64,000 nucleotides of DNA from Phyllobates terribilis (taxonomy: Eukaryota): assembly GCF_046119375.1 (NCBI RefSeq), contig NW_027362763.1, positions 781,076,001-781,140,000 on the forward strand. Direction: 5' to 3'. The first letter of the stretch is position 1, and each line of letters begins with the position of its first letter. The notes under the pieces were generated by a model, which saw only the letters and a program-made list of their open reading frames with translations, ran no database searches and was not told where the DNA came from. A program made the position numbers and the translations under genes. This document shows positions 20,178 to 52,722 of this stretch, one piece after another.

Positions 20178-21648
20178 TACTCATCAAAAAAGAAATGCAG
20201 TGCAGACTTCATGTAATTATTAATTGATTTAACTTTATTAATTATGAAAAATTCATACATAAATGCATAATTACAAAAAACTTAGAACAGAGGTGCATAA
20301 AAAGAGGATAAAAGGTCACCCGCGGAACAAGACAAGTAAGTATGGGGTTTTAATGATAGTAATTAGTGATGAGCGAGTAAGAATTGTTAACCCTTTCAGC
20401 GAGCACGCTTGGGTGCTCGCCAAGTATTTGCGGCGTGCTCGGCATCGATGTACGTGTCGCCGCGGCTGCATGTGTTACATCTGTTAAACACCTGTTGCAC
20501 ATGCAGGGATTGCCTAACAAACAGGCAATCCCTGCATGTGTTACAGGTGTTTAACAGATGTTACATATGCAGCCGCGGAGACACTTACATCGATGCCAAG
20601 CACGCCGCAAATACTCGGCGAGCACCCAAGCGTGCTCACCGAAAGGGTTAACAATTCATACTCGTTCATCACTAATAGTAGTGCACAGCCCCAGATATAG
20701 AGTAATTCCAAAATATTAATACAATTCAAAGGAGCCACTTACGGAATGAATCCCCTAATTCATACAATATACATGATTAGTGTTTAATAAATACAAGGAA
20801 ACAATCTAGTAAAGTGCTTGTGCAAAACACATTATAATTCACTCCTATTAGGCAATAATAGCAGAATAGCAAAATAGCATAATGCCCATAAATTGCATAG
20901 TAATTATCATTCACCCTGCACATGCACTGTGCTAACCCACTACTGTTCTATCACATCCGGCCTCCGAATTGGCAGTGCGCATGTCCGTGACGTCATCAGG
21001 AGTTTTTTTCCCTGACGTGCGCCCTTCCAGAGATGCTGATCATGTGACCGCTATTTCCATTTTGGGCCGCACACCACACGCGCTATTATGCTGACCGCCA
21101 ATGATGAGATCTATAAATAGTAGACAGGACATCATCCATTCATACCCCTATTTTGAAAAAGCTAACTCGAAACACACGTCATGGTCCCCTAGGAACGCCA
21201 CACTTGCACCTACACTTATGGGTGAGTGATAATTACTATGCACTTTATGGGTATTATGCTATTTTGCTATTCTGCCATTATTGTCTAATAGGAGTGAATT
21301 ACAATGAGTTTTGCAAAATCACTTTATTAGATTGTTTCTTTGTATTTATTAAACACTATTTTGTTTTTTGTATATTGTATGAATTAGGGGATTCATTCCG
21401 TAAGTGGCTCCTTTGAATTGTATTTCTATTTTGGAATTACTCTATATCTGGGGCTGTGCATTACTATCATTAAAACCCCATACTTACTTATCTTGTTCCT
21501 CAGGTGACCTTTTATCCTCTTTTTATCCACCTGTGTTGGTTATGTTTTTTGTAATTATGCATTTATGTATGAATTTTTCATAATTGATAAAGTTAAATCA
21601 AGTAATAATTACATGAAGTCTGCACTCCATTTCTTTTTTGATCAGTAC
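20178..21648. repeat. Inverted duplication (~425-bp arms, 303-bp spacer), Penelope-like pLTR remnant suspected
   Basis: 20178-20916 (minus the MITE) is the reverse complement of 21220-21648. The spacer has ctataaatag (21111) and a decayed hammerhead-like motif tgaaaaagctaactcgaaacacacgt (21154-21179); a GGTGAGT donor opens the right arm at 21221. Confidence 0.8.
20364..20674. mobile_element. hAT-type foldback MITE, 311 bp
   Basis: TIR tagtgatgagcgagt / actcgttcatcacta; 8-bp TSD atagtaat / atagtagt. The empty site (atagtaat once) is preserved in the opposite arm near 21461. The element is palindromic throughout. Confidence 0.92.
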
Positions 21649-22295
21649 AGATTAGTGCAGTCTTTCTCCTGTGAGACACGTAATGATACACAGCCTTGCT
21701 CTCCTCTATAATCATTGTATCTGTTGTGCAGAGTAGAACAGAAGCTATGTATCATTATAAATACGTCTTGCAGCTTTGATCTCACAGCACTGTCTGCTCT
21801 TCTCTACTCCCCTCCCACCGACAGTGCCATGAGAGGAAAACAGTTTATAACTACACCTATTCTCTGTGTACTATTCTCCTCCTCCACTTCGAATCACAGT
21901 AGATTTGGATAGTGAGATCTGTTAAGAGAGCAGGGCTGTGTGTCATTATATGTCTCGTATAGATAAAGCTGGGTCTGACATTCTCTAGGGACGTGTACAT
22001 TTTTTCCCCTGCATGACATCTTCTGCTTACAAGTGGGCAACGTCATGCAGGAGCAATAATACATGGCCCAGTGATGCTTGGCTAAAGGGGAAATTATAAT
22101 CTAAAGTTTACTAGCTAATATCTCTGCAACGGAGGGGAAAAATTAAAACATCAAAATTGAGTTTTATGCAACTCAGCAGTCACTCTGCAGTCACTATTCC
22201 ATGAGGTGGCCAGTTTAACATGCTAAAGCTGGTTAAATGTAATTTTTAAGTTCTTGAACCTTAACTTCCAAGCTAGGTATAATTGTTGTGCAAAT

Positions 22296-25200: not shown

Positions 25201-25650
25201 GAAGGAAAGCTTGTTAGTGATGAAGAGATTGTGAATGTAGGAAAGTTTGTTGCAGACAGAGCGAGCGTTCCATAGAGCTTCTGTTAGAGTGACTGGGGAA
25301 GCAGAGGCTGGGCAGATGGGTTACGAGAGTTTGGGATAGATCGTGGGTAGGAGGTGGAAGTGATTGTAGGGATGTGGTGAGGAGGACCAGGATTTAGAGA
25401 GATGTCACCGGTAGTAAGGAGGAGCAGAGAAAGTGTTAGTAGGTGGGAGCAGGAGAGGGCATGAGGTGGCTGTGTGTGTTTGGAGACAAAGGATTGTATG
25501 TTGAGGAATAGTTCTGAGGAGGAGGTGAGATGGGTGAGGAGGATGGAGGGAGAGATGAATAGTTCATTACTAGGTGTAGGGATTAGGGGTGGTTGTAAAA
25601 AGTGAAGGATTAAGGGGGTGAGAGTGAAAACAAACACAAACATTGTTTAC
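22296..25650 (-). mobile_element. L2 clade LINE, near full-length ORF2 region, degenerate
   Basis: (TAA)n-like tail at 22296-22319 after aataaatggcgcta. APE motifs (MGDFNIPID, GHTLDLIF, SDHNLL) and RT motifs ([41 protein letters not shown], [16 protein letters not shown], YADDTQI). Many stops and frameshifts. Confidence 0.93.
22545..25643 (-). pseudogene. L2 ORF2 (2A-like leader + APE endonuclease + reverse transcriptase) pseudogene
   Basis: ORF-track fragments 25284-25643, 24097-24864, 23849-24106, 23515-23889 and 22879-23229 are collinear pieces of one ORF2. The 3' coordinate is approximate. Confidence 0.88.
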
Positions 25651-26035
25651 TGTTACTTAGTATCCAGTTACCTTCAGTTCCCTTCAGGTTCAATTCAGGA
25701 TTAATTCATATTTCTCACTCTTAAGCAATGGACACACTTAAGGTGATGGACACAGACTAAAGTCTAATAGACTCCTAGCCCACAATATATTTGTAGCAGA
25801 ATGCATTCAGCTGTGAACCAGAGGGGCGTGGTTTGTGCTCAACTTGATCAGCTGATTAAGGCTGAAACAGATGCTGGATAGTCAAAGTCTAAGTAAACAA
25901 GGTCATAAATGAAAGAGGAGGGTAGTTGGTGTTACTTGAAAAACATACCATTAGTATATAGGAGCAGAGAGGTAGAGAGAAATCTGCATGGAAATCAGGA
26001 TGGGAAAGCTGAGTCACGTACCATTAGTATACATA

Positions 26036-27683
26036 CAGTTAGGTCCATATATATTTGGACAGAGACAACATTTTTCTTATTTTGGTTCTAGACATTACCA
26101 CAATGAATTTTAAACAAAACAATTCAGATGCAGTTGAAGTTCAGACTTTCAGCTTTCATTTGAGGGTATCCACATTAAAATTGGATGAAGGGTTTAGGAG
26201 TTTCAGCTCCTTAACATGTGCCACCCTGTTTTTAAAGAGACCAAAAGTAATTGGACAATTGACTCCAATGCTATTTCATGGACAGGTGTGGGCAATCCCT
26301 TCGTTGTGTCATTCTCAATTAAGCAGATAAAAGGCCTGGAGTTGATTTGAGGTGTGGTGCTTGCATTTGGAAGGTTTTGCTGTGAAGTAAACCTGCGGTC
26401 AAAAGAGTTCTCCATACAGGTGAAACAAGCCATCCTTAAGCTGCAAAAACAGAAAAAACCCATCCGAGAAATTGCTACAATAATAGGAATGGCAAAATCT
26501 ACAGTTTGGTACCTCCTGAGAAAGAAAGAAAGCACTGGTGAACTCATCAATGCAAAAAGACCTGGGCGCCCACGTAAGACAACAGTGGTGGACGATCGCA
26601 GAATAATCTCCATGGTGAAGAGAAACCCCTTCACAACAGCCAACCAAGTGCACAACACTCTCCAGGAGGTAGGCGCATCAATATCCAAATCTACCATAAA
26701 GAGAAGACTGCATGAAAGTAAATACAGAGGGTTCACTGCACGGTGCAAGCCACTCATAAGCATCAAGAATAAAAAGGCTAGACTGGACTTTGCTAAAAAA
26801 CAACTAAAAAAGCCAGCACAGTTCTGGAAGAACATTCTTTGGACAGATGAAACCAAGATCAACCTCTACCAAAATGATGGAAAGAGAAAAGTATGGTGAA
26901 GGCGTGGTACAGCTCAAGATCCAAAGCATACCACATCATCTGTAAAACACGGCGGAGGCAGTGTGATGGCTTGGGCATGCATGGCTGCCAGTGGCACTGG
27001 ATCACTAGTGTTTATTGATGATGTGACACAGGACAGAAGCAGCCGAATGAATGCTGATGTTTTCAGAGCCATACTGTGTGCTCAGATCCAGCCAAATACA
27101 GCCAAACTGATTGGTCATCGTTTCATACTACAGATGGACAATGACCCAAAATATAAAGCCAAAGCAACCCAGGAGTTTATTAAAGCAAAGAAGTGAAATA
27201 TTCTTGAATGGCCAAGTCAGTCATCTGATCTCAACCCAATTGAGCATGCATTTCACTTGTTAAAGACTAAACTTCAGACAGAAAGGCCCACAAACAAACA
27301 GCAACTGAGAACCACCGCAGTGAAGGCCTGGCAGAGCATCAAAAAGGAGGAAACACAGCGTCTGGTGATGTCCATGAGTTCAAGACTTAAGGCAGTCATT
27401 GCCAACAAAGGGTTTTCAACCAAGTACTAGAAATGAACATTTTATTTACAATTATTTAATCTGTCCAATTACTTTTGGTCCCTTTAAAAACAGGTTGGCA
27501 CATGTTAAGGAGCTGAAACTCCTAAACCCTTCATCCAATTTTAATGTGGATACCCTCAAATGAAAGCTGAAAGTCTGAACTTCAACCGCATCTGAATTGT
27601 TTTGTTTAAAATTCATTGTGGTAATGTCTAGAACCAAAATTAGAAAAATGTTGTCTCTGTCCAAATATATATGGACCTAACTG
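26036..27683 (+). mobile_element. Full-length Tc1 element (1648 bp), inactivated
   Basis: TA|cagttaggtccatatatatttggacag ... ctgtccaaatatatatggacctaactg|TA; TIRs of ~220 bp. Confidence 0.95.
26393..27430 (+). pseudogene. Tc1 DD34E transposase pseudogene (345 codons, single frame)
   Basis: CTG at the expected start (26393), TGA at 26897-26899 and 27194-27196, no frameshift. Motifs WTDETKIN, QMDNDPKY, WPSQSSDLNPIEH; ends GFSTKY*. Confidence 0.92.
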
Positions 27684-29106
27684 TAACTATAAAAAAAATC
27701 TTTACAAAATTTGTTGGCTAGGGTAGTTATAAAAGAAGAGATGTATCTGAGGGTGTCTGTACCAGAGACAACCCCAGTAGTGGTTCTGATGCCCTTGAAC
27801 ATGTCACCCAAGCATCCTGCATCATTGTATTGTCCCACAAAATAAGTTAAAAAAATGTCAAGTGTACTTAAAAAAAGACATCATATCTAAGAGCTTTTGT
27901 GGATATTCATAGATGAATCTAGTGTTCAATTATTGGTAAGTAGCCTAGTAAAAAAAAAAGTGCCACCCTACAGTTGATTGGAGAACCTGGCCTGGGAACT
28001 AAAATATTAGAACACAAATTGGTTAGTCCTTTTCTGACATGGTTTCATTTTGATCTCTGCTATGGGATTGCAATGTAGAATTGCCTTGTTATACACATCC
28101 AAAAAAAGTATTGTGACCTGCATGCAGTATGAGCAGTCAAATGGAAAAAGCTGCTACACAGTGTCTTTGTCTAGAATGAATATAATGGGTTCAGTTGGGT
28201 TTTATGGTATTTTTTGCAAAATCTGCGGCCTTATTAAAGCAAATTACTACTTGTAGTGTCTACTTTTAGAAAAAAAGCTGCAGTATGCTATATATTTTAG
28301 ACATGTATTTATGATTCAGCATATTTTACTTAAACGTATTTTAAAAGTCGATTGATTGTGTGAGAAAAGTGGTAAAAAAATCAGTTTCTTATGTGTCCAG
28401 CAAGTGAACAAATAACAAACTCAATAATATATTATTTGCTTGTATGTGTGAAATAAAAATTACTGTTATTACTGTCGTCGTTTTGTATTCCAATGACTTT
28501 GATTATGGTCATATAAAATTGTGATTTATTTAAAGCACTATAATTGCATGCCACGAAATGCTTCATTGATATCTTTGCACTTTTAAATGTGCATTTAGCT
28601 TATGTCTATTTTTGCTTGCAAATACGCTAAATTATAAACCATTGTGGACGTAAATAAAAGAGTAGAAATCGTTATATGATAACATATATCCTTGACCCCG
28701 GCATCTAGCACAGGGTACCCATACAACACATAATATGGACTCTCAGCTCTCTTGCTGCTAGTAATGGGCCAAGCTGATAAATAATCCAGTGCATAATCTA
28801 GTGCAGGTAAATAGAATTGGTCAGGATAGGGTTTGGCAATAGGATTGGGGACAGAAGAGGGTAATTTGGCATAGGGTGGACAGCTGACTAGGGATCAACT
28901 TGGCTAAGGGACTGATGGACAGGACACAACACAACAAAGGGAACAGTCAACCAGTCTTGAGTCTTGAGTGGCGCACTGCAATCCTAGAACTGACCTGGCA
29001 TGGGGGCACTTGGTCAGACTTTCACATATTATTGGGGGCAGACACTAACATGGTGAGGGCTGTAGGGTGCTGGTAGATAGGTGACACACACATGAGGTTA
29101 AACTTA

Positions 29107-29303
29107 AAGGGCCACGTTCACATATTCAGTATTTGGTCAGTATTTTCCATCAGTATTTGTAAGCCAAAATCAGGAGTGGCACAATCAGAGAAGTATAATA
29201 GAAACACGTCACCACTTTTGTATTTATCACCCACTCCTGGTTTTGGCTTACAAATACTGATGCAAAATATTGACCAAATACTGAACGTGTGAACGTGGCC
29301 TTT
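29107..29303. mobile_element. Harbinger/PIF-like foldback MITE
   Basis: ggccacgttcacatattcagtatttggtcagtatttt...aaaatattgaccaaatactgaacgtgtgaacgtggcc; ~85-bp inverted arms. TSD not clean. Confidence 0.7.
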
Positions 29304-30328
29304 GACTAACTATTCAATGATATAGGAGACTTCACTCCTATAAAAGCACACTAACACTGTACATATTACTAGTACAATGGTGGGAGTATGGGGCACCCAG
29401 AGTATGTCCCCTCAATTTGCGATTTGGGGACTTCCCTAACTTGTGATGTACAGCGCTCACTCCTACAGCGAACGCTGTCCCATGTATGTGTGCACATGCG
29501 CACTGATTCTGGCACGGTCGTCAGTGCAAACACATGTCTATGAAAGCAGAATGATTGGGGGGGCATTGTACACAGATCTCCACATCATGGAGAGGGGAAA
29601 AAGTATGTCAGTGAGAACAAAGAAAGCAATATAGAAAATAAGAAAATCACATGTAGAGGATTGTTATAGATTTAATTGCAAATCTATAAGTTCTTATAGT
29701 TCATAGTGAATATATTGAAGCGAGGCTATGATCCCCAGATGATCCTTAACTGCAATTGAGAAACATTTAACTTCCCCATCCTGCAAATTGGTAATTAAAG
29801 TTGGGTTCTGATAGATAACAGACAGGAATTCCATCCTTAACTAGTAGAAGAATCTGAAAAGTCGACAGATTTATGGTCTCAACCTCAGCATGACCAGAAC
29901 TGGCATGCAAACTGCATTAAGATAATTTGTTCTATTACAGTTATGACTATTGAATTTTTTTTTACAAACACCAAGTGTCTTAAAACTATGAAAATCATAT
30001 TTTCGGAGTCGTAACAAAGTGGCGAATTGTCTTACATCACTGGGCGGTGACCATAACACTTTCAAATTAAATATCGGCTCAGATGGATGATGCTATCAAT
30101 GCCATGTTTCCCATCTATATAAAAGTAAAATCGTGATAAGAAAATAGACAATAATATCTCCTACCTTTGTACTCCAGGGGCGAAGATATCATAGAAGTTT
30201 GGAATCTCGTAATTTTCAAAAAAGAAGTGGCACACCCATTACCAGCCCTGTTATGAGTCACCGGAGGGGAGGTATGTGGGTGTAACTTATGTTAATAAAA
30301 GCAAATGCCCATTCACTACAGAATTCAA

Positions 30329-31059
30329 TGTTACACGCACGCCGCTAGGTTCAGATAGGGGCGAGACAGGTTACATGAATTCTTTGGAATCCTGGGGGAA
30401 CCGTTACTCAGGGCGACTATAGACCATGTGCTGCAGTTTCTCTCAGGCACACAGGGGTATTGATCCTCAGGCACAGACACGTAGGTTGTTTCATGTGCTG
30501 ACCAGACACACTTGACAAGAGTCCTCATAAACGGTAGAACAGTAGCATTTAATATGAAGCCGCACAGCCAGTGCAAGTTAAGTCTTATGAGCAACAGGCT
30601 CCAGTGACCAACAGTACAGTTTCCTTAGCAGCATAGCATTTCACAGTCTTCCCAGTAGTACAAGACAGCACAGTTCTAATGCAAAGGCACATTAATGAAC
30701 ACAGCATTCTTTACAGCACAGTGAGATGGAGGAGGGGGGAGGGTTTGCTGAGGGAGATGATCCCTGTGACACCATTTCTTCCAGTCCTTATCTTACTGCC
30801 TGACAATACTCTGCACTGGTAGTTCAGGAACTCTACCTGACCTGTGCTTAGCTTCAATCCTGACTTGAATCCTTTTCACATGCAGGGGCGCTTCTGTGAG
30901 ATACAGAACACACACCATCTTTCTCTTCGGCTGCAGCCAGACAGTAAACAACTTCCCCACAATCCCCCATGGGCTCTGCTAAAATACTCCCCTTCTCCTG
31001 TGACTGTGTTAACCCCTCTAGTTGCTGGATGCTTCTGGAGCACAACACTTCCTGTCTCA
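30329..31059 (-). mobile_element. Solo LTR of the same family as 40461-41165, opposite orientation
   Basis: tgttacacgcacgccgctaggttcagat...ggaatcctgggggaaccgttactcagggc matches the reverse complement of 41080-41165; tgttaacccctctagttgctggatgc...cctgtctca matches the reverse complement of 40461-40520. No TSD found. Confidence 0.7.
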
Positions 31060-31949
31060 TGTGCTTGTGTTACTTCTAATAGTTGCTGAATGCTTTTAAA
31101 GCAACAGCACTACTTCTGCATGTCACACTCTGCTACAGCACTACTTCTGCATGTCACAACAATACAAACTTATCTCTCACCCACAAGGCCCTCTACACTT
31201 CTGCACAAACCTATATTTCCTCCCTCATCTTTGTCTATCACCCTACCCGTGCTCTCCGCAACTAAAACTAACATCCTCCATAATCCGAACCACCTACCTC
31301 CATCTCTAAGACTTCTTTCTTGCTGCACCAGTTTTATGGATGCACTACCCCGGACAATCTGAATAATACCTAGGCCTGTCTACAGAGATGAGTTTTTAAA
31401 GTACGTTTAAAAAAGTGGGGGCTATCACCTCAATTCACCAACCTAATGCTCCCCTGTTCTGTCTTTTTAAATTTTACTCAGAACCTGGTCCCTCCTTTTC
31501 TGTGTCCACTTCCTCCTTGCACCCAATAGCACTTGGCAACTGTACCTAGACAGATGCTGGCTGGTGACTGGATCATGCAGTTTATTTAAAATGCCCTATT
31601 TATTATAATGATGGCTGGACCATATATTACAAGCACTTCTACCTATAGTCTCCTCTCTATTTCCTTATAGATTGTAAGCTTGCGAGCAGGGCCCTCACTC
31701 CTCCTGTAACTGTTGAACTGTGTTACTTTGTGTAACATACCTGGCGGCGTCCTTGCATGGTGGTCCATCTCCCACTGTGCAAGAGCGCGCACTTGATCTC
31801 CAGTCCAGAATGTCTCTCTGGCTTCCCTCCTTGCTGTCTGTTTGTCTGTTTTGGCTGCATAGGGCGACGCCCGCTGAACTTCCTGTTTCTTGTACCTGCT
31901 GCGGACACGCCCCTGTTGCACCTTCAGCCTATTGCTGTCCATCTTTGGG

Positions 31950-31989
31950 TATTTATACCGCCTTCTTCCTCAAGATGGCGCCTGAGCAT
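31950..31989 (+). promoter_or_regulatory. LTR TATA-like box (tatttata) with predicted transcription start 30 nt downstream (gcctgagcat)
   Basis: TATTTATA at 31950-31957. The start sequence is complementary to the post-LTR primer position. The same TATA/-30/GCCYGAGCA layout occurs in the solo LTR at 16075/16105. Confidence 0.6.
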
Positions 31990-32499
31990 TGTGTCCTGTC
32001 AGTTGGCTTTTTGTCTCTGATGTGCCAGGTCCTTTCCTGTTTTCCTGCCTGTTCTCCAGTTCTGTGTCTGAACTGTGGTCTGTTCTTGTGAGCACGCTTC
32101 TAGCCTGTTCTTTCGCCTTCTAGGGGCTGTATTCCTAGATCTGCCTGTCTGTGCCTTGCGGTATCTGTTCCCGTCTGAACAGAGTCCTGTTTGTGTCCCA
32201 GCCTTGCTGTATTTGTTCCCGTTCCTCGGTTCCCAGTTGTCTGTGCCTCGTTTCTACTTTAGCCTTTTCTCCCTTTTCCCTCTATGTCTGTTTTCTGCGT
32301 CTTTCTGCAGAGTCTGAACTTGCTCCTAAATTCCTTCTCGTCGTCTCTGTACCTCTGTTGTGAATTTAGTGTACGCTCGCTACTTCTTTGTAAGTACTTT
32401 GTGTGCTTCTGGTTCTGCCTTTCCTTCTCCGTCTGCTCTTTGTGAACAGAGTCCTATCCCCTTGCCTTGTCTCGTTCGCCGCTCCGGCGGTTCTAGCCG

Positions 32500-33200
32500 C
32501 TCTGCGGTTTCCGCTCTGCTTCTGCCTCGCCTACCGCTCTGCGGTTTCCGCTCTGCTCCTGCCTTGTTTACCGCTCTGCGGTTTCCGCTCTGCTCCTGCT
32601 TAGCTTGCCGCTCTTGCGGTTTCTGCTCTGCTCCTGCCTTGTTTACCGCTCTGCGGTTTCCGCTCTGCTCCTGCTTAGCTTGCCGCTCTTGCGGTTTCTG
32701 CTCTGCTCCTGCCTTGTTTACCGCTCTGCGGTTTCCGCTCTGCTCCTGCTTTGCTTGCCGCTCTTGCGGTTTCTGCTCTGCTCCTGCCTTGGTTGCCGCT
32801 CTGCGGTTTCCGCTCTGCTCCTGCCTTGTTTACCACTCTGCGGTTTCCGCTCTGCTCCTGCCTTGTTTGCCGCTCTGCGGTTTCCGCTCTGCTCCTGCCT
32901 TGTTTGCCGCTCTGCGGTTTCCGCTCTGCTCCTGCCTTGTTTGCCGCTCTGCGGTTTCCGCTCTGCTGCGGCCTTGTTTGCCGCTCTGCGGTTTCCGCTC
33001 TGCTGCGGCCTTGTTTGCCGCTCTGCGGTTTCCGCTCTGCCGCGGCCTTGTTTGCCGCTCTGCGGTTTCCGCTCTGCTGCGGCCTTGTTTGCCGCTCTGC
33101 GGTTTCCGCTCTGCTGCGGCCTTCTTAGCTGCTCTGCGGTTTCCGCTCTGCTCCTGCCTTGTTTACTGCTCTTGCGGTTTCCACTCTGCTCTTGCCTTGC
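32500..33200. repeat. 37-bp tandem repeat array inside the 5' LTR (gctctgcggtttccgctctgctgcggccttgtttgcc)
   Basis: Directly visible. Confidence 0.95.
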
Positions 33201-33825
33201 TTGCCGCTCCTGCGGTTTCTGCTCTGCATCTGCTCGCTGCTCCGGCAGTCCTGTCCTGCTCTGCTTCTGCTCGCTGCTCCGGCAGCCCCGTCCTGCTCTG
33301 CATCTGCTCGCTGCTCCGGCAGTCCTGTCCTGCTCTGCTTGTGCTCGCTGCTCCGGCAGTCCCGTCCTGCTCTGCTCTTGCCCACCGCTTCGGGCGTTCC
33401 CTCTCTGCTGTGTTTGGCTACCGCATCTGCGGTTCTGTTTCTGTGTCCCAGTCTGTACTGGGTCTTGTCCTCTCTGTGCTCCAGCCCGTCCTTTCGGCCA
33501 GTACCTCCCTGCCTGCATATTCGCCTGTATCCACCCGTCTGCATACCTGCCGTGTTTGCTTATATCCACCAGTCTGTGCCTGCCTAGCCTGCCTGTTCCA
33601 GTAATCCCTGTGTGGGTCAACCCCCGTGTCCGGAGTTTGACCTGGAGTAGCACCTGGTCCCTCTGCCCGGTTTCTCCCTGGTGCACTGGCGTCGTATGCC
33701 GTCGTGCCACCTTGGTCGGATCGGCCAGATACTTAGTCACGCCCCTCCAGGCACTCTCCGGTCCATGGTCCAGTGGAACCACTACTCCCGCACACGCCAG
33801 TCAGTCCGGGCGTGTGCATAACAGC

Positions 33826-33835
33826 ATGCTCAGGC
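33826..33835 (+). promoter_or_regulatory. Putative self-priming primer-binding site
   Basis: atgctcaggc starts 2 nt after the 5' LTR and is the exact reverse complement of 31980-31989. No TGG tRNA-type PBS is present. Confidence 0.7.
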
Positions 33836-33964
33836 CATGGTTCCCGTTGAGCCCCACGGCCTTCGCTCTCTGAGAAGTTTTCCAGCGAATACATGCATTA
33901 AAAATAAATAAATACATTTTTTTTTTTCTCAGCTGAGTTCCAGGCGAATTACGCACCCGTCCAG

Positions 33965-36370
33965 ATGGATCTATCTGCTCTCGTTCCTGCGGATCCGCCA
34001 CGTTACTATGGGGATCCAAGACAAAGTCGTGCATTTGTGGAGCAATGCATGCTACACTTCAAGTTCTACCCTCTATGTTTTCCCACCAATCGGGTTAAGG
34101 TGGCATTCATTATGTCTTACCTGGCGGGTGATGCCTTGGAATGGATCAACCCCCTATATGAAACACAGGATCCGATCCTCCTGGACCTAATGGCCTTCCT
34201 GGTGGCCTTTCTAATGGTCTTCGATGATCCTAACCCGGAGGCTCCTGCTGAAGCTTCACTTCCCAATATCCCGGAGCAGCCCCAATGGGTAATGTGTGTG
34301 GGTAGCGCAATAGTCCTCCAGCCCAATGAGACTACTGCCCACCCAGAATCCTCACAGGGTGACTACGCTTTCCGGAATACTTCTCCCAACCTCAAGAGGC
34401 AGTCCAGACGTGCTAAATGTAGAGGCAAGCCGTCACGCCAGGGTCTGTCCTCCCTGAGACCTCCTGACCCCAACCTTGAAGTCCCTACTGAAGCTTCATC
34501 TCCCTGTATCCCGGAGAAGCCCCAACGGGTAATGTGCGTGGGTAGTGCACCAGTTCTCCTGCCCGAAGAGACTTCTGCCCATCCAGACTCCACACAGGAG
34601 AACTTCCTGCACCCGGCATCAGATGCTTCACCCACTTTAACCGGTGTGCATGTCCAAGGATGCTCCAAAGCTGTGGTTACCTCTGAGTCTGTGCACCTCT
34701 ACTACCTGGCGGAGGACCCCCTGTTGCCTCCTGAATCCTCCGGGATACCACTCGATGACAAATGGAGAGAGACTTCTCTACACTCGGTACTCGATACTTT
34801 GTCCGCTTCGTCCTGTGAGCCTGACAATGGGTACCCCAAAGTGGTAGTTACCCCCGAGTCTCTACACCCCTCCGACCAGGCGGAGGACCTCCAGTTGTCT
34901 CCAGAACCCTTCGGGGTGCTACCTGGTAGCGAAAGGACAGAGACTCTCCTATACTCTGTACCTGATACCTCGCTCGCTTCGTCCAGTGAGTCCAACCTAG
35001 TGTACTCCGAAGCAGAGGTTACTCCCGAGTCTCTACACCCCTCCGACCAGGCGGAGGACCTCCAGTTGTCTCCAGAACCCTACGGGGTGCTACCTGGTAG
35101 CGAAAGGACAGAGACTCTCCTATACTCTGTACCTGATACCTCGCTCGCTTCGTCCAGTGAGTCCAACCTAGTGTACTCCGAAGCAGAGGTTACTCCCGAG
35201 TCTCTACACCCCTCCGACCAGGCGGAGGACCTCCAGTTGTCTCCAGAACCCTTCGGGGTGCCACCTGGTGGTGAATGGACAGAGACTTTCCTATATCCTG
35301 GATCTGATACCTCGCTTGCTTCGTCCAGTGAGTCCGACCTTGTGTACTCTGAAGCAGAGGTTACCCTTGAGTCTCTACACCCCTCTGACCAGGCGGAGGA
35401 CCTCCAGTTGTCTCCAGAACCCTTCGGGGTGCCACCTGGTGGTGAATGGACAGAGACTTTCCTATACTCGGTACCCGATACCTCGCCTGCTTCCTCCAGT
35501 GAGTCCGACCTAGTGTACTCTGAAGCAGATGTTTTCTCTGAGCCTCTGCACTCTTCTGACCCGGCGGAGGACCTCCAGTTGTTTCCTGAATTCTCCGGGG
35601 TACCACCAGATAACAAAGAGACAGTGACTTTTCCTCATTATGTACCTGATAACCCATCTATTTCTTCCTGTGAGCTTGACAAGATGTACCTCGAAGCAGA
35701 GATTACCCCCAAGTCTCTGTCCCCCTCCAACCCGGTGAAGGACTTCCAGTTGTCTCCTGTACCCTCTGGGGTGCCACCTGAAAATATGTGGAGAGAGATT
35801 TCCTTGTGTGCTGTTCCTGGTACTCCACCCGTTTCGTCTGTTGCTAAGGATGGCTGGATAGGAGGTAGCATCCTAGTTAACCAGATGAGATCAATTTTTC
35901 CTGTGGACAGTGGAAGTGATCTCCTTGAAGTGAACGACTGGTCCTCGAATTCCCTGCGGAAGATTCTGGCAGGCCTGAAGAAGAGGGGGCGTAAGGGGGG
36001 GGGGGGTACTGTAACATACCTGGTGGCGTCCTTGCATGGTGGTCCATCTCCCACTGTGCAAGAGCGCGCACTTGATCTCCAGTCCAGAATGTCTCTCTGG
36101 CTTCCCTCCTTGCTGTCCGTTTGTCTGTTTTGGCTGCATAGGGCGACGCCCGCTGAACTTCCTGTTTCTTGTACCTGCTGCGGACACGCCCCTGTTGCAC
36201 CTTCAGCCTATTGCTGTCCATCTTTGGGTATTTATACCACCTTCTTCCTCAAGATGGCGCCTGAGCATTGTGTCCTGTCAGTTGGCTTTTTGTCTCTGAT
36301 GTGCCAGGTCCTTTCCTGTTTTCCTGCCTGTTCTCCAGTTCTTTGTCTGAACTGTGGTCTGTTCTTGTGA
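33965..36370 (+). CDS. 801-aa ORF: N-terminal sushi/RTL-like Gag (capsid) fragment + acidic Ser/Pro-rich 57-aa repeats, reading into the 3' LTR
   Basis: PPRYYGDPRQSRAFVEQCMLHF...FPTNRVKVAFIMSYLAGDALEWINPLY resembles the Gag domain of sushi-derived elements (PEG10/RTL/LDOC1 type). Contains a 171-bp coding repeat. No protease, RT, RNase H or integrase motifs. No stops over 2.4 kb. Confidence 0.75.
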   Translation: MDLSALVPADPPRYYGDPRQSRAFVEQCMLHFKFYPLCFPTNRVKVAFIMSYLAGDALEWINPLYETQDPILLDLMAFLVAFLMVFDDPNPEAPAEASLPNIPEQPQWVMCVGSAIVLQPNETTAHPESSQGDYAFRNTSPNLKRQSRRAKCRGKPSRQGLSSLRPPDPNLEVPTEASSPCIPEKPQRVMCVGSAPVLLPEETSAHPDSTQENFLHPASDASPTLTGVHVQGCSKAVVTSESVHLYYLAEDPLLPPESSGIPLDDKWRETSLHSVLDTLSASSCEPDNGYPKVVVTPESLHPSDQAEDLQLSPEPFGVLPGSERTETLLYSVPDTSLASSSESNLVYSEAEVTPESLHPSDQAEDLQLSPEPYGVLPGSERTETLLYSVPDTSLASSSESNLVYSEAEVTPESLHPSDQAEDLQLSPEPFGVPPGGEWTETFLYPGSDTSLASSSESDLVYSEAEVTLESLHPSDQAEDLQLSPEPFGVPPGGEWTETFLYSVPDTSPASSSESDLVYSEADVFSEPLHSSDPAEDLQLFPEFSGVPPDNKETVTFPHYVPDNPSISSCELDKMYLEAEITPKSLSPSNPVKDFQLSPVPSGVPPENMWREISLCAVPGTPPVSSVAKDGWIGGSILVNQMRSIFPVDSGSDLLEVNDWSSNSLRKILAGLKKRGRKGGGGTVTYLVASLHGGPSPTVQERALDLQSRMSLWLPSLLSVCLFWLHRATPAELPVSCTCCGHAPVAPSAYCCPSLGIYTTFFLKMAPEHCVLSVGFLSLMCQVLSCFPACSPVLCLNCGLFL

Positions 36371-36779
36371 ACACGCTTCTAGCCTGTTCTTTCGCCTTCT
36401 AGGGGCTGTATTCCTAGATCTGCCTGTCTGTGCCTTGCGGTATCTGTTCCCATCTGAACAGAGTCCTGTTTGTGTCCCAGCCTTGCTGTATTTGTTCCCG
36501 TTCCTCGGTTCCCAGTTGTCTGTGCCTCGTTTCTACTTTAGCCTTTTCTCCCTTTTCCCTCTATGTCTGTTTTCTGCGTCTTTCTGCAGAGTCTGAACTT
36601 GCTCCTAAATTCCTTCTCGTCGTCTCTGTACCTCTGTTGTGAATTTAGTGTACGCTCGCTACTTCTTTGTAAGTACTTTGTGTGCTTCTGGTTCTGCCTT
36701 TCCTTCTCCGTCTGTTCTTTGTGAACAGAGTCCTATCCCCTTGCCTTGTCTCGTTCGCCGCTCCGGCGGTTCTAGCCGC

Positions 36780-37760
36780 TCTGCGGTTTCCGCTCTGCTT
36801 CTGCCTCGCCTACCGCTCTGCGGTTTCCGCTCTGCTCCTGCCTTGTTTACCGCTCTGCGGTTTCCGCTCTGCTCCTGCTTAGCTTGCCGCTCTTTCGGTT
36901 TCTGCTCTGCTCCTGCCTTGTTTACCGCTCTGCAGTTTCCGCTCTGCTCCTGCTTAGCTTGCCGCTCTTGCGGTTTCTGCTCTGCTCCTGCCTTGTTTAC
37001 CGCTCTGCGGTTTCCGCTCTGCTCCTGCTTTGCTTGCCGCTCTTGCGGTTTCTGCTCTGCTCCTGCCTTGGTTGCCGCTCTGCGGTTTCCGCTCTGCTCC
37101 TGCCTTCTTAGCCGCTCTGCGGTTTCCGCTCTGCTCCTGCCTTGTTTACCGCTCTGCGGTTTCCGCTCTGCTCCTGCCTTGTTTACCGCTCTGAGGTTTC
37201 CGCTCTGCTCCTGCCTTGTTTACCGCTCTGCGGTTTCCGCTCTGCTCCTGCCATGTTTGCCGCTCTGCGGTTTCCGCTCTGCTGCGGCCTTGTTTGCCGC
37301 TCTGCGGTTTCCGCTCTGCTGCGACCTTGTTTGCCGCTCTGCGGTTTCCGCTCTGCTGCGGCCTTGTTTGCCGCTCTGCGGTTTCCGCTCTGCTGCGGCC
37401 TTGTTTGCCGCTCTGCGGTTTCCGCTCTGCTGTGGCCTTGTTTGCCGCTCTGCGGTTTCCGCTCTGCTGCGGCCTTGTTTGCCGCTCTGCGGTTTCCGCT
37501 CTGCTGCGGCCTTGTTTGCCGCTCTGCTGCCGCCTTGTTTGCCGCTCTGCGGTTTCCGCTCTGCTGCGGCCTTGTTTGCCGCTCTGCGGTTTCCGCTCTG
37601 CTGCGGCCTTGTTTGCCGCTCTGCGGTTTCCGCTCTGCTGCGGCCTTGTTTGCCGCTCTGCGGTTTCCGCTCTGCTGCGGCCTTCTTAGCCGCTCTGCGG
37701 TTTCCGCTCTGCTCCTGCCTTGTTTACCACTCTTGCGGTTTCCACTCTGCTCTTGCCTTG
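36780..37760. repeat. 37-bp tandem repeat array inside the 3' LTR (longer than the 5' copy)
   Basis: The 3' LTR is 263 bp longer than the 5' LTR, mostly from extra units. Confidence 0.95.
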
Positions 37761-38748
37761 CTTGCCGCTCCTGCGGTTTCTGCTCTGCATCTGCTCGCTG
37801 CTCCGGCAGTCCTGTCCTGCTCTGCTTCTGCCCGCTGCTCCGGCAGCCCCGTCCTGCTCTGCATCTGCTCCGGCAGTCCTGTCCTGCTCTGCTTGTGCTC
37901 GCTGCTTCGGCAGTCCCGTCCTGCTCTGCTCTTGCCCACCGCTTCGGGCGTTCCCTCTCTGCTGTGTTTGGCTACCGCATCTGCGGTTCTGTTTCTGTGT
38001 CCCAGTCTGTACTGGGTCTTGTCCTCTCTGTGCTCCAGCCCGTCCTTTCGGCCAGTACCTCCCTGCCTGCATATTCGCCTGTATCCACCTGCCGTGTTTG
38101 CTTATATCCACCAGTCTGTGCCAGCCTAGCCTGCCTGTTCCAGTAATCCCTGTGTGGGTCAACCCCCGTGTCCGGAGTTTGACCTGGAGTAGCACCTGGC
38201 CCCTCTGCCCGGTTTCTCCCTGGTGCACTGGCGTCGTATGCCGTCGTGCCACCTTGGTCGGATCGGCCAGATACTTAGTCACGCCCCTCCAAGCACTCTC
38301 CGGTCCATGGTCCAGTGGAACCACTACTCCTGCACACGCCAGTCAGTCCGGGCGTGTGCATAACACTTTGTGATGTCTTTATTGTTTGTACATGTCTCCA
38401 CCTAATTGTAAAGCGCTGCGGAATTTGTTGGCTTTGTATAAATAAAATTATTATTATTATATGCCAAATTATAATTTTGGTCAGTCCTGGAAGTCACAGT
38501 GTACTGTGGTTCTGTCTGTTGCTCTAAGGAGTGCTTCCCTCCACTAAGCTCTGAGCCATTTTCATGGCACAGGTTTAGTACATTTATTTTGTTTATCCTT
38601 TTTATTTTATGTGATTGTAAATACTGCATTGTTTTGTCCATTTTGTAACATCTTTGTATATTTTTTATAAACACTGCCTACGTTTTCCTGATAAAATATA
38701 TAAAATTGAATAGCTTCATTCTTCTTGCTCTATAAACCGCATCCTGAA

Positions 38749-41165
38749 GTCATACGCTACCTGTTGTGTGTCCAATCAGCCTGCAGAAACCATTGGTGGT
38801 AGCAGCTAGTTTTTCGTGGGTTATTGGGAAGCTTGTAGGTGACTGTACTGGAGTATATATGGATATGAACTGTGGCGGTCCAGGATTATTAGACAAAAGA
38901 GGTGCGTGGAAGCATTTGCCCAGGAATGGATGACAACCACTGAGAGAGCCAGATTGGAGGACTGTATGGTGAGAGGAGTGGTAATCAATTTTGACCAAAA
39001 GAAGAGATAACGTTTCATCCAAGAACCGGGCAACCGGTTAGACATCGTTGTTAATCCTAGGTTGGTGGAGCAAGACTATGATTTACAGAGGACCCGGAGT
39101 CTCAAGCCAGGAGACAAGGTCCAATACCTAAAGATGTGGGGGCCTAAGGGGTGGTACGCCATATCTGTGTCACGAATAGTGGAAATGGAAGAGTACCGCC
39201 CAGAACATTGGTCGGACGCAGAGTACCCCAATATAGAAGGGCAGGTAAGGGAACGCTTCCCATCCCCCACAAGACACTGATTCGGGGCCCTACCCACCCG
39301 GGAAAGAGAGCCTGCCCCACCAACTACAACCCAGGAAGCTGCCGCTCCAACCACATTTGGGGGCACAGGACCAACAACGGTGTCTGCACATTTACTCACA
39401 ATAAATGGCACCAACAGCCAGGTCTCTTTGTCCTGCTGTGTGCCATCTGGCTTGTCTAAAGCTCCTAAAAAGGAGAAGACGGATTGAAAGAAACTGACAA
39501 GTATGACGGAAATCACCATGTTGTGCTGGTTGCACCGTGGTTGCTAGGGATAGTTCCCTGTCCCTGGCCAGGTGATGTGACCTGCTGAGTCCTGGGGGCA
39601 TGAGGCTGTAAGTTCAATTCTTGTATGGCTGGAAAAGCCACCAGTGACTTTGGTTGCTAATTTGTTTTTCTGTTCAGGCTGGATAGACCTATTTTGATAA
39701 AAAAGATTTGAATAGCTGGGCAAGCTGCACCTTGTTTTCTCCCTTATTTTTATTTGCACATGTTGTGCCCTTTTCTGGACATGTGGGCTCCTCAAGCAAA
39801 GTTGGGAGAGTTTGCATTCTCAAATTATGGACTGTGCTGTATCCTGTTCAGGAACTGTTCCCGGTTGCACTTTAATGGACTGTGCCTTTACTGTTTTGAA
39901 GAAACAGACATTGTTTCTGTCCTTGTTTTAAGGACTATCCCTTTGCCTGTTCCAGGGTCCTTACCGGGAAGGACCAAGGACCCCGTGCCCAAGGAAAGAA
40001 AGGAGTGTGTTTCTTAAATTTGCACAAACTTTTTCAGGAATATTGACTGTGTTGATGATATGTGTTTTCTTGATTGCAAAATGTTTTGTAAAGACTGTTG
40101 CAGTATTTAAATATTTTATACTTGAATTTGATAAAAATGTTTAGAGGTAGATAGGGAGAGCTGGTTGAAAACACACGAAAAGCTCCAGCTCAAGAGTGTC
40201 AGTTGGTTCAAATTGTTGTTGTTTTTTACAGGAGACCGACCAACAAGAGTGAGATAGAGTAATTGTGTTAAATATGTAAATTGTTAATATGGGTAAAAAT
40301 AATGTCTACAATGTCTGGCCACTACCTCACCTTTATTAAAAGGGCAGCATTGGGGGAACACTGTCATTGATGGTAAGGGGAGAACAACTCCGAGGGGCTG
40401 GTTAAGGTTAACCAGGTAGAAGGTAAATGTTGAGGACGACATTAATTTAGGAGGGAAGAGTGTGACGGGTACATACTGTACAGATGTTGCAAAGCATCGA
40501 GCAACTAAAGGGGTTAACAGGGTGCAGCTAGGTGGAGTGGTCAGGCCTGCCCCAGTTAGACTGAGTAGAGTCAGTGCTGAGCTGGAGAGCAACCTGGAAG
40601 GATGCAGACCTCTTCATCAGGCAGACGAGGGTCCTGAACTTCTCTGACCGTGACTGCCCGTTAGTTGCTAGGAGTAACTACACCGTAAGGAAGTTGAAGC
40701 GGGAGTTCACTGTTTTTAAGCAGAAGAAAAGGATTGAACACCATGTCTAAGGACTGGACCCATCCTACTGTCCTACCCCCCCGTACCTCACTGCAAAGAA
40801 GGTAAAGTGTGGCACTGTAGACAGGGACTGCTGGTGGGCACATCAAACTGTGTTGTTAAAGAGACTGTTGCTGTTTAAGGAAAACCTGTTGCATATTGTG
40901 CCTTTGTGAAGAAGCTGTCTGTTGTTGTTTATAGAAAGCCTGTTGCTTCAAGGAACTGATGTTATGTGCTGGCCGTGCATCTGCATTAAATACGATTGTT
41001 GAACTGTTCCTAAAGACTGTCAGTGTGTCTGTGCCAGACAGTGAATGCATGTTATGACTGAGAAAACTACAACCAATGGTTGCCCTGAGTAATAGTTCCC
41101 CCAGGATTCCAAGAATTCATGGAACCTGTATAGCCTCATCTAAACCTAGTGGCATACGTGTAACA
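38749..41165 (+). mobile_element. Degenerate LTR element remnant: 5' LTR mostly lost, short internal ORF with cold-shock domain, PPT and 3' LTR 40461-41165
   Basis: catacgctac at ~38751 resembles the LTR end; PBS-like tggtggtagcag at 38794; PPT aggagggaagag directly before TGTGACGGG (40461); end cgtgtaaca (41165). The LTR family is confirmed by the second copy at 30329-31059. Confidence 0.6.
38966..39280 (+). pseudogene. Degenerate cold-shock-domain (OB-fold) coding sequence
   Basis: MVRGVVINFDQKKR*RFIQEPGNRLDIVVNPRLVEQDYDLQRTRSLKPGDKVQYLKMWGPKGWYAISVS aligns by eye to the CSD pattern G-V-x-F-x-x-x-KGYGFI...D(V/I)FV...RSL..G..V.F...GPKG..A..V. One TAA at 39008. Confidence 0.65.
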
Positions 41166-42582
41166 GTGTCCTGTATAACTATATCATCTACAGGACGCAG
41201 ATGCAGTTGAAATCAATGGTGGAGCAAAACTTAGGCTCACTTTCCCATCATTTAACTCACTTGTAGGCCACAAACTGCTTTACACCACACAGAGGATATC
41301 ACCTTGGTGCTGGCACCACAATGTACCACCTCGCGGGATTGCAGAGGCCGAATTTACTGCGCTTTTTGGGGAATCAGAATTAGGTAAATATGTTGTTTTT
41401 TTTTCTGGGGAACAAAAGAGGTGCTATTACTCGTGCCAATACAAAAAGGGTATGTGCACACAAAGTCTTTTTCAGGAGGATTCTGATCCCAAACCCGCCT
41501 GAAAAAGTGCTAACTGAATGCTCAAAAGAATGAAAATATGCATTTCTATCTAAAATGACTTGCTATTCATATGTTCAGTCTTTTGAACATCTTTTAAACA
41601 CTTCAGGTTTTGAAAGACGCTAAGCTATTAAAAGAAATGACCTGAACATTCTTCAGCTTTGAAGCTCTGAAGCCTCTCTATACTTCATGATATAAGTCAA
41701 TGGCACGGTTCAAAACATGCTTGGAAGATGCCTAAGTGTCTTTTTAAGAGTTATGTCATCGTGTTTGCTTGAAAAACTGCTAGCAGTATCTTCATTGTAC
41801 AATAGAGTTTAAAAAAAGCCACCGGAAAAAGGCAGTAAAAAAAATACACCACGAAAACCAAGGAAAAAAGCTTAAAAAAATGTCTACAGTTCTACAGTCA
41901 AAAACGTTAAAAATGCAAAGAGGGGAAAAAAAAAAGCTAAAAACGACTCTTTAGGATCTTAAAAAACGTGGCGGGAATTTGCATTGTGTGTGGGCACAAA
42001 TTACTGTTTAGGGGATGTGGATGCTAATATTGAATTTATATTTGATGTTTACAACATGGTAAAAATGAAAGGGGCCCACTATAAAGAAAAATGTGAAAAT
42101 TGTAAAAGTTATTTGCGTAGATAAGTGCAGGCACACCATGTACAGGCAATAAAAGTGCTGTGAATAGCATTTAAATAAAAGCTTTAGCAACAAGTAGAAC
42201 AGCTGACATTCACATCGAACGTAGGAAAATGACTCTTGGATATGAAGAAGCACTTGTGATAGTGCACAGTAAAATACTCTCAGGGACAATCTAGAATATC
42301 TCGTATTGTTGGCAATCATAAAAAGCATTGTATTATTATAGAAGTCTCTGACCTATTAGGTATATTATATGCAGCTTGGATATGTACTACATTGACTTGT
42401 GATTTCTAAATTTGCAATTGCCATAAATATCTTGATGCACTTTTTATTAGACTAAATTGCACATCTCGGTGGATATACTATAGGTGCATTGTGGTCAATT
42501 TTCAAAGCCAAAAACAGTGCGGTCACATGTTTGACTATAGTGATATATAAGACTATAGTGATATATAATTGTCTCACGCATA

Positions 42583-48883: not shown

Positions 48884-49805
48884 TTAACTTTTACAGCGCA
48901 TACATTGAAACACATTACAAAAGAAAAAAGTTGGCTTTGTAAATATGTTTCTTATATTATTTTGCACTGATTTTAAGAATGACCTTTTCATCACGAATCA
49001 AAATGAAAGAAAAACACCTGCTGGTTCATTCTTGGAATCTATTTGTGGTTTATTTGTACTTTGCCTGATGTAACTGTATAAATGTTGTCTGGCCTTCCAT
49101 AATAAGGTGAGAAAGTGACAGGACTGGCAAAGGCAGAGTATCAGCATGGCACTGGTTACTCTGTAAAGTCCTCTATAGATTAGAGGGCTAGCCCCATACC
49201 TGAACATGTGATAATGGGGTCAATAGGGAGTGGGTCTCTATCTTCATGTATTCTTATACATATATTGAGTTTACATGTTGTCATATACATGATTCAATAC
49301 AGGTAATAGGGTGTTTGTCATGTGACAAAGTCACTGGCAAAATACTGGAGGGGAGATATGTAGCACTGAGATTGATAACGCCAGTAAAATAAACATAGAA
49401 AAAAATGTTCCAGCACACAGAGTGAAGAGAGGGGTTAATCAGCCATGTTTAGTGTTAGGGTGATTAAACACCTGTAGAGAGGGAGGAGTTCAGAGGATAA
49501 ATTCCCAGTCTTTTAGAGCATTTGGTGTGGGGTGGACCTGGGGGCACAAGCTCTGGAGCTGTTTTGTCATGTGAAGGAAAGTTAAACCTTGGGTTGTTTG
49601 ATCCTGAAGCGGGTGGTTTCCCATAGCAACAAGAACTGTGCCATACATTATGTTTTGGTTTTCCTGGTAGGCCAGGACTGTGTTTGTTTTGCTAACTTTT
49701 CTGTGGTTTATGTAGTACTCTTAATAAACCACAACTGAAGATTTAAAGAGACAGTGTTCCTCTGTCTACCTCTATCTGCAGCCGAGTGTGCCAAGCTACC
49801 ACAGT

Positions 49806-49821
49806 TGGTGGAGAATGCGGG
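49806..49821 (+). promoter_or_regulatory. Primer-binding site complementary to the 3' end of tRNA-Ala(AGC)
   Basis: TGGTGGAGAATGCGGG starts 2 nt after the 5' LTR and is the reverse complement of ...CCCGCATTCTCCA(CCA), the vertebrate tRNA-Ala 3' end as recalled. Confidence 0.8.
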
Positions 49822-49851
49822 AATTCGTGAGGGCCACCAGACTCAGGCAGT

Positions 49852-51480
49852 TTGGTGACCCTTGTTAGAGCCACACTCCCTCTCCAATTGATCCCTGTGA
49901 AGAAGGTTGGCGTCTGCTGCATTCAAGGGGATGCTATTAACTATCTGGTGGCCAGAGTGGTCATTGAGATGGCCCGGGGTACTGAGTCTCAAGAGGTCGG
50001 CGTGGTCCAGAACTTATTGCACACAATTATCATAGGTTGGGACTTTGTACTGTTTTGGGACTTGTGGAGTCTTAAAAAAGTCCCACCAACCCAAGAGTCT
50101 GACGAGTTTCCCTTCTGTGTAGTGGGTGAAGAGGAGAAGATAGTATCCCCTGAGGCAGACATTTCTGAAATACGGTTGACCAGAGAAAATTTTGGGTTCA
50201 CCCAACATAGGGACCTAACTCTAAAAGAGGCGTTCAATAAGGTAACCGTCATAAACAGCATAGCACAGGAGATGGGAGCTGACAACATGTTTCCCTATTT
50301 CATGTTGAGTGGGGACTTATTGTACTGAGTTAATAAGGTGAGGGAGGATATAATAGAGAAATTGTTGGTACCAGGACCCTATAGACAAAGGGTGTTGGAC
50401 AAGGCTCATTTACATGTCTTGGGTGGCCATCTGGGGGTGGACAAAACTCAAGAACGGGTCATGTGGAGGTACTATTGGTCCAGATGTCACCATGAAATCC
50501 TAAGATATTGCAAGTCCTTTCCCATCTGCCAGTTAACCACTACCACTTCTCCCTTCCACAATCCTCTCGTGTCGCTATCCATCAAGGCAGGGCAACATAG
50601 ATAGCATGTTGAAACTCCATGTTGGCTGGACAGACCAGAAGGTGACACCAATGGTGTCACAGTGGCAGAGACACTGTCACCAGCCCAGAAACAACAGTGC
50701 CGAGAACTGCTTCAGCAGAACCGGGACGTGTTTGCGGAGTTGCTAAGACATACGCAGGTTGGTGAACATGGAATCCTGATGGAACCACATGACTGGTGAA
50801 CCAAATGTCGTATAGAATCCTCGAAGCCCGCCACAAGGTGATTTTGAAGGAGGGGGCTAAATTTGATGCGTATCCGATAACCCATGACGATAAACTCATA
50901 GAGAAGCTAGGGTCAGCCAGATACATCACCTCCCTGGACCTAGCGAAAGGTTACTGGCAAATCCTCCTCTCACAAAGTGACAAGAAGAAGACCGCCTCTT
51001 TTATACTTGACGGTTGCTTCCAGTATACCAGAAACCCATCCGGGCTGCAGAGAGACCCAGCTACCTTCCAGAGGGCCATAGACCGGCTCTTAGCCCCCCA
51101 CAAAAAGTACGCCGCAGCTTACCTCAATGATTTTGTGATATTCAGTCCGGTCTGGAGAAGTCATCTGCAGAAGGTCCAGGCTGTGAGGAAAGGGAGGTTT
51201 ACCATAAACCCAAGAAGTGTGCCTTCAGGAAAAAGAAGGGAAAATACTTGGTCTACATCTTTGGAAGAAACAAAGTAAAGCCGCAAGTGAATAAAGTGGA
51301 GGCAGTCCAAAATTGTCCGAAACCGGTCTCCAGGTACCAGGTATGGGCATTTCAGGAATGGTGAGATACCCGATGATAGCAGCACCCCTGACCGACCTTC
51401 TTAAGGGCACGAAGACGTCAATGGCCAAATGGCCTCTTGAAGCAGAGTTGGCATTCCAAGAGTTGAAACTCAGGTCTTCA
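49852..51480 (+). pseudogene. Gypsy pol remnants (protease C-terminus, integrase zinc-binding domain, RT)
   Basis: IIIGWDF; AHLHVLGGHLGVDKTQERV...YCKSFPICQL; ARYITSLDLAKGYWQI...PATFQRAIDRLL...AAAYLNDFVIFS. Stops, frameshifts and large deletions. Confidence 0.85.
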
Positions 51481-52722
51481 TCTTTCATGTGGCACACAGT
51501 CCATGGAAGCGTAACCCAGATGCTCTGTTTAGACTTCTCTGTTTGGTGACTGAAGATGCCAAAACCTATGGCTTTGGGCAGAGGGGGTGATATGTGAGAA
51601 AGTCACTGTCAAAGTACTGGAGGGGAGATATGTAGCACTGAGATTGTTAGCTCCAGTAAAATAAACATAGTAAAAATGTTCAAGCACACGAAATGAAGAG
51701 AGGGGTTAATCGGCCATGTTTAGCGCTAGGGCGATTAAACACCTTTTGAGAGGTAGGAGTTCAGAGGATAAATTCCCAGTCTTTTAGAGCATTTGGTGTG
51801 GGGTGGGTCTGGAGGCACAAGCTCTGAAGCTGTATTGTCATGTGAAGGAAAGCTAAACATTGGGTTGTTTGTTCCTGAAGCAGTTGGTTTCCTGTAGCAA
51901 CAAGGACTGTGCCATACATTATGTTTTGATTTTCCTATTAGGCCAGGACTGTGTTTGTTTCGCTAACTTTTCTGTGGTTTATGTAGTACTCTTAATAAAC
52001 CACAACGGAAGATTTAAAGAGACAGTGTTCCTCTGTCTACCACTATATGCAGTCAAGTGAGCCGATCTACCACAGTCAGTGCAGGGGGATGTGCATAAAG
52101 TATGTAATATATATCAGTTATAATTATATCAATAATAGCATTACTAGAACATATACAGTCATGAAAAAAAAACTATGTACCCCCTCTTAGAACATATGAC
52201 AGCTTACAACGTGACATTAGTTATTTTACAAAAACTAGGCCAAAATGCAGAAGCCGTGTGTGAAAAATTAAGTACATTCCATGAATCAATATAACCTTTT
52301 TAAGCAGTAGTAACTTGAAGCAATCAGAAATACCAAAAATTAAAGGTATCACTAAAAATATGAAGCAGACTACAGTGCTCAGGTACACCCTTACATCCAA
52401 AGATTTCTAAACAAAATAGAGAAAGTCAAATAAATACAGACACTAGTATATCCCCTTACAGATATATTACATTTAATAATCTATGTAGATGCATTTATTT
52501 ATATGAGATGACGCAAAGTTAACAATATGCAATAAAAGCACACACAAAAAAATATGTGCATACCAAAATAAAAACAAATCCAGAGGAATTTTATTCCACG
52601 GAGCTATCGTGGAATATATAAGTGTAAATAGTACTAAAAATATTATCGAACTCTCTATAAACAATATTTTTTCTTGTTATTTGGGATGATACATAATGAC
52701 AAAACCAATAGAGCTTCTTTAA

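Follow-up and report, generated by a model that had tools for sequence, protein, structure and literature searches.

A decayed cold-shock reading frame in repeated, LTR-bearing DNA of Phyllobates terribilis, possibly the remnant of a non-autonomous retroelement family

The 64,000-nt stretch of Phyllobates terribilis DNA analysed here, called the window throughout (GCF_046119375.1, NW_027362763.1, 781,076,001–781,140,000, forward strand), contains a diverged and broken cold-shock domain (CSD) joined to repeated DNA that ends in a polypurine tract (PPT) and a long terminal repeat (LTR) (Table 1). With moderate confidence, we interpret this unit as a dead copy belonging to a family of non-autonomous LTR retroelements of frogs, the only gene of which would encode an old, diverged CSD protein; for that protein, we infer a role as an RNA chaperone. 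Being both dead and incomplete, the copy shows little on its own.

Table 1. Features of the CSD unit and of a related solo LTR, in window positions
Feature	Position	Strand	Basis or remark
Solo LTR, same family as the 3' LTR	30329..31158	-	471/668 aligned columns identical
High-copy segment resembling the 3' part of another family's LTR	38461..38793	+	5' side cut by LINE-like tail
PBS-like motif, tRNA-Leu type	38794..38806	+	12-mer 38794-38805, 10/12
Broken reading frame, 185 codons from in-frame ATG	38930..39487	+	CSD, then acidic linker, then Thr/Pro/Ser-rich tail
Cold-shock domain, diverged, broken in RNP-1	38966..39175	+	Pfam CSD, likeness to P0002, YBX1/YBX2 structures
First in-frame stop, TAA, inside RNP-1	39008..39010	+	Sequence; zero-difference contigs across the stop in 3/3 DNA runs
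Second in-frame stop, TGA	39278..39280	+	Sequence; zero-difference contigs across the stop in 3/3 DNA runs
Repeated non-coding 3' internal region	39488..40448	+	0 Pfam matches in 6/6 frames; about 960 nt
Polypurine tract, 12 purines, adjoining the LTR	40449..40460	+	Sequence
3' LTR, 705 nt, TG...CA, ATTAAA near 40987	40461..41165	+	Sequence, contig depth, solo relative

The reading frame opens with an ATG at 38930, upstream of the CSD, and ends at 39485. An earlier note on this DNA had proposed a hidden CSD at 38966–39175, interrupted by a TAA at 39008–39010, and the frame reads as described there. When this interval, with an X at the stop, was compared with 24,736 Pfam families at E-values up to 10, the CSD family was the single match (PF00313, E=4.8e-5, 23.6 bits, profile positions 2–64 of 66). 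As a control, 14 other readings of 38462–40461 were scanned and none matched any Pfam family at E-values up to 0.1; this agrees with the proposal that neither gag nor pol accompanies the domain. Sequence searches against solved structures gave the CSDs of YBX1/YBX2 as the best matches, occupying all eight of the first rows (E=5e-4 to 2e-3). CSD clusters were also among the ESM Atlas matches, the best of which (0.88) fell under the lead line of 0.9, and a single-sequence AlphaFold model of the window CSD was uninformative (pLDDT 36).

When 1.84 billion representatives were scanned in full with HMMER, two matched, P0001 and P0002. The latter (XP_075187427.1) is a 481-aa protein of the frog Anomaloglossus baeobatrachus, annotated as uncharacterised and free of the stop, whose domain is identical to the window CSD at 29 of 69 positions (42% over 69 aa, E=2e-13). 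Its tail, Ser/Thr-rich like that of the window frame, aligns weakly with the latter (20 bits, E=0.068), and nothing in the window matches residues 1–279 of P0002. The RNP-1 and RNP-2 aromatics are largely kept in P0002; in the window copy, RNP-1 is broken by the stop and the aromatic position of RNP-2 holds a non-aromatic residue. The structure model of P0002 has five strands at residues 280–350 (pLDDT 61–86 per block), predicted to form a five-stranded OB barrel with Foldseek TM-scores of 0.81–0.85 to bacterial Csp. A PDB fold search with this model placed cold-shock proteins first (CspA, E=6e-6, TM 0.81), with YBX domains also among the top matches. P0001, a 699-aa JGI/IMG protein with many tandem CSDs (30% identity), was set aside as a generic CSD match rather than a specific relative; it has a GPKG-type motif resembling that of the window CSD. 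Word-indexed searches of 5.8 billion proteins, which are weak negatives, yielded no relative at near lengths (0 of 1 candidates) and only P0002 among 27 and 966. The locus was found in 0 of 246 metagenome stretches and 0 of 82 viral-contig stretches, and LTR patterns gave 0 in each. A chance match is ruled out by the Pfam result, the control readings, and the alignment and fold of P0002. Judging from the Pfam profile and the predicted fold of P0002, 38966–39175 is a true CSD, though the gathering score of 27 bits is reached neither by the window sequence nor by P0002 (23.7 bits).

The domain had been thought to be missed because of one stop codon. The TAA at 39008 does lie inside RNP-1, but a second stop, the TGA at 39278, had been overlooked. 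Contigs with zero differences cross both stops in all three DNA runs compared (three samples from two studies, one of which runs may be the window's own source). This rules out assembly error behind the two stops, which are thus real, and the CSD copy is dead.

Repetition in the genome was assessed with contigs aligned to the window at 80% likeness; unique sequence has a depth of about 15 in run X1, and summed depth is not equal to copy number. All bins in 39043–41201 lie above unique depth, and in the three DNA runs the bin with the C-terminal half of the CSD reaches 1982, 1865 and 316. Contigs that differ from the window at 39104–39105 number 13 in X1, 13 in X3 and 5 in X6, and one related copy, present in X1 and X3, spans 39106–39759 with 77 differences (about 88% identity). 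Further related contigs cover 39865–40220, 40114–40409 and 40303–40463 in the 3' internal region. Related contigs thus extend from the C-terminal half of the CSD to the LTR, and the unit is repeated; among the contigs listed, none joins the CSD to the LTR, and the connection is made by overlapping related contigs only. In X9, a run guessed to be RNA that may be DNA, a low-depth related contig covers 39090–39211. The N-terminal half of the CSD behaves differently: its bin (38916–39042) has depths of 18.8, 25.2 and 7.0, near single copy at 80% likeness. Either other copies have diverged more in this half or the window copy is recombinant there. Long related contigs from all three DNA runs begin aligning exactly at 39106, with 150–180 nt of their own sequence left unaligned, and position 39106 is a possible recombination point within the CSD.

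The claim that a PPT and an LTR follow the domain is borne out. The 12 purines at 40449–40460 stand directly before the TG at 40461, the LTR closes with CA at 41165, and contig depth drops to the unique level directly past this position. The solo LTR is related to the 3' LTR over its whole length (local score 205; shuffles, mean 28 and maximum 40), and the two have a common end motif (84% over 95 nt). Given the solo relative and the depth drop, both PPT and LTR are real. At 31128–31158 (minus strand), the first ~27–31 nt of the solo LTR are duplicated in tandem. The contig covering 40303–40463, that is, the internal end with the PPT, then departs from the 3' LTR sequence, which suggests that the same 3' internal end is joined to other LTR subfamilies. 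The octamer GGGGTTAA, located near the start of the 3' LTR, occurs five times in the window, four of them in LTRs and two of these in a Gypsy element at 49322–52074; beyond the octamer, the 3' LTR and the LTRs of that element show no similarity above shuffles. An Rfam search gave one match, which is attributable to chance (E=0.39).

The 5' side has a different composition. The summed contig depth of the segment at 38461–38793 is 10,000–22,000 in X1, compared with about 15 for unique contigs. The segment does not resemble the 3' LTR (local score 27; shuffles, mean 25.4 and maximum 38; nothing at z>3), and the window copy therefore has no pair of matching LTRs. Directly 5' of it lies what we take to be a LINE-like tail, none of whose three frames matches Pfam and into which another LTR element has inserted with a 5-nt duplication; a search upstream of the nested insertions did not find the remainder of a 5' LTR. 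The PBS-like motif described previously is present (10/12 to the tRNA-Leu complement), but it is one of 10 matches of the 12-mer with two mismatches in the window, where 3.4 are expected by chance, and it is accordingly weak when taken alone. The motif borders on the high-copy segment and is crossed by related contigs (38480–38810 and 38638–38859), and most related contigs differ from the window copy at 38801, towards a better PBS fit. The window contains no tRNA genes, and the PBS 10-mer returned unrelated primer matches only in the literature. In the search for a target-site duplication, the 4 nt past the LTR plus a subsequent TG were found 0 times in 25001–38800; the 5- and 6-nt forms were found at 27753, 32064, 31991 and 36270 and nowhere else, thus not at the 5' edge of the element. 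The dissimilar LTR-like ends, the border with the LINE-like tail and the missing duplication indicate that the window copy is truncated at its 5' end and probably combines pieces of two LTR families, its 5' LTR-like end coming from a different family than the 3' LTR. The placement of the CSD in an LTR element thus holds in so far as the domain lies in repeated DNA with a PPT and an LTR; its flanks form no LTR pair, and no target-site duplication was found around it.

Such flanks invite the alternative that a CSD fragment, taken from a P0002-like frog host gene family or from some other repeat, came to lie between unrelated LTR pieces, and that no CSD-bearing LTR family exists. The near single-copy depth of the N-terminal half of the CSD, the break of related contigs at 39106, the annotation of P0002 as an uncharacterised 481-aa gene and the nest of insertions that makes up the region would all suit this patchwork. 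We nevertheless regard it as unlikely, since repetition is unbroken from the C-terminal half of the CSD through the LTR end, the frame starts ~125 nt past a PBS-like motif linked by related contigs to the segment on its 5' side, and this motif, frame, PPT and LTR agree in orientation.

If a CSD-bearing LTR family is accepted, the protein may still never have served it: an LTR element could have acquired a CSD in the distant past and amplified it without making use of it. The four best-supported contig differences within the CSD fall at first or second, amino-acid-changing codon positions, as expected under neutral decay of the copy and with no sign of purifying selection. No open-frame CSD copy was seen in Phyllobates terribilis, and the window copy has its two stops. 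Varied CSD positions are also reported for bird endogenous retroviruses (ERVs) (PMC12287698). Passenger cargo is, in our estimate, improbable. The domain is 42% identical to that of P0002 from another frog and only ~30% to solved CSDs, and the two frog domains share family-specific residues at their C-terminal end, a pattern that would be easier to explain by selection in the element lineage.

The donor of the domain is ranked differently by sequence, which places YBX1/YBX2 first, and by fold, which places bacterial CspA first, with ~30% identity to either. The lead of YBX1/YBX2 among solved structures could point to an ordinary processed pseudogene of YBX, LIN28, CSDE1 or CARHSP1. This origin is very improbable, considering that the domain of P0002 is itself only ~30% identical to YBX1, that matches are confined to the domain, that the frog P0002 is far closer than any solved CSD, and that the frame is partly multi-copy and joined to a PPT and an LTR. 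Scarcely credible is the suggestion of the earlier note that the CSD replaces nucleocapsid function, considered here in the form of a CSD within a Gag-like protein: the long helices predicted ahead of the CSD in P0002 (82–125 and 230–275) could belong to a structural protein, but P0002 has no capsid or Gag family match, no usable ESM Atlas match for residues 60–275 and no Gag-like fold among its listed structure matches, the window frame lacks a P0002-like N-terminal part, no capsid part is seen in either, and an element lacking a capsid would need a helper Gag, which would bring its own nucleocapsid.

The surroundings of the unit are rich in other repeats. An LTR element at 31731–38365 (plus strand) has LTRs of about 2.1 and 2.35 kb that are 97% alike over 1497 nt and hold 37-nt tandem arrays, a 5-nt target-site duplication, 171-nt tandem repeats in its interior and one open frame of 819 aa that matches DUF4939 (E=1.2e-6) and no other Pfam family. 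The Gypsy element at 49322–52074 (plus strand), presumably Gmr1-like, is decayed, with an integrase zinc domain before the reverse transcriptase (RT), LTRs that are 90% alike and a 4-nt target-site duplication. At 26028–27691, inverted ends of 230 nt (97%) enclose 1204 nt, an element that we assume from its appearance to be Tc1/mariner-like; a similar layout is found at 1022–2669. Very long 19-nt satellite arrays occupy 5409–15862 (about 544 copies) and 17106–19488, and nested long inverted repeats at 19672–22236 form a large palindrome-like structure.

Under the reading that we favour, a non-autonomous LTR family with a CSD gene, members would be transcribed from an LTR, their reverse transcription would be primed by tRNA-Leu, and they would be copied in trans by an autonomous helper of Gypsy type that supplies Gag and Pol. 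The GGGGTTAA octamer, common to the unit and to a Gypsy element whose integrase precedes RT, is a weak hint to the type of helper. CSDs bind single-stranded nucleic acid through an aromatic RNP surface, and the element's protein may bind the element's single-stranded RNA in this way as a chaperone. It could then stabilise or mask this RNA in germ cells and help it into helper particles, easing packaging or reverse transcription, by analogy with the host protein YB-1, which reportedly supports HIV replication and is said to accompany MMTV particles (PMC6040738, PMC4486188). The most extended version of this proposal is a frog-wide LTR family devoid of gag and pol, whose single gene, a CSD chaperone, was captured once long ago and has been under selection across species, its RNA being masked like a maternal mRNP and entering helper particles. 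We put this version forward tentatively, as a possibility that may well not hold in full.

Several known systems resemble the frog unit in part. P0002 shares with the window frame the CSD and a similar Ser/Thr-rich tail, and differs in its long N-terminal part and in having no stop. Compared with the CSDs of YBX1/YBX2, those of the window and P0002 have the same fold and domain length, and no large gaps are needed to align the long loop that precedes strand 4; the differences are the low identity (~30%), the lack of any match outside the domain and, in the window copy, the stop in RNP-1 and the non-aromatic RNP-2 position. Non-autonomous LTR retrotransposons of the TRIM/LARD type have a PBS, a PPT and paired LTRs, lack gag and pol and typically carry no gene. 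The frog unit, with its PBS-like motif as a candidate PBS, is similar in its PPT, LTR, absence of gag and pol and 1.65-kb internal region, and unlike them in bearing a CSD frame and in having no matching 5' LTR. With the presumed Gmr1-like Gypsy element, the frog 3' LTR shares the TG...CA ends with GGGGTTAA near the start, whereas the frog unit has no pol. Within the literature covered, mostly outside the subscription journals, no LTR element of amphibians or of Gypsy type was listed as carrying a CSD.

The earlier note did not count CSDs among the standard cargo of LTR elements, a surprise that was overstated. According to PMC12287698, 46 bird ERVs carry CSDs, captured several times, and its authors suggest a benefit to the virus; LTR retroelements with CSD cargo are thus already known. 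The bird ERVs and the frog unit have in common a pfam00313 domain in an LTR retroelement. The bird cases are ERV-A/B and ERV-G retroviruses, whereas no gag, pol or env was seen in the frog unit, in which the CSD seems to be the only gene. The bird hits are also strong (E=1e-14 to 1e-26 across the 30 covered of 41 supplementary rows) and the frog CSD is much more diverged, with E-values that come from different programs and are only roughly comparable. Relative to the bird ERVs, the novelty lies in the host, the depth of CSD divergence and the lack of other genes. If the family reading is true, LTR retroelements took up CSDs independently in birds and frogs, the frog CSD was kept long enough to form a distinct protein lineage, and frog gene models annotated as 'uncharacterised', XP_075187427.1 among them, may be element products. 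A minimal element with an RNA chaperone as its sole gene product would then offer a testable case of the benefit suggested for the bird viruses (PMC12287698).
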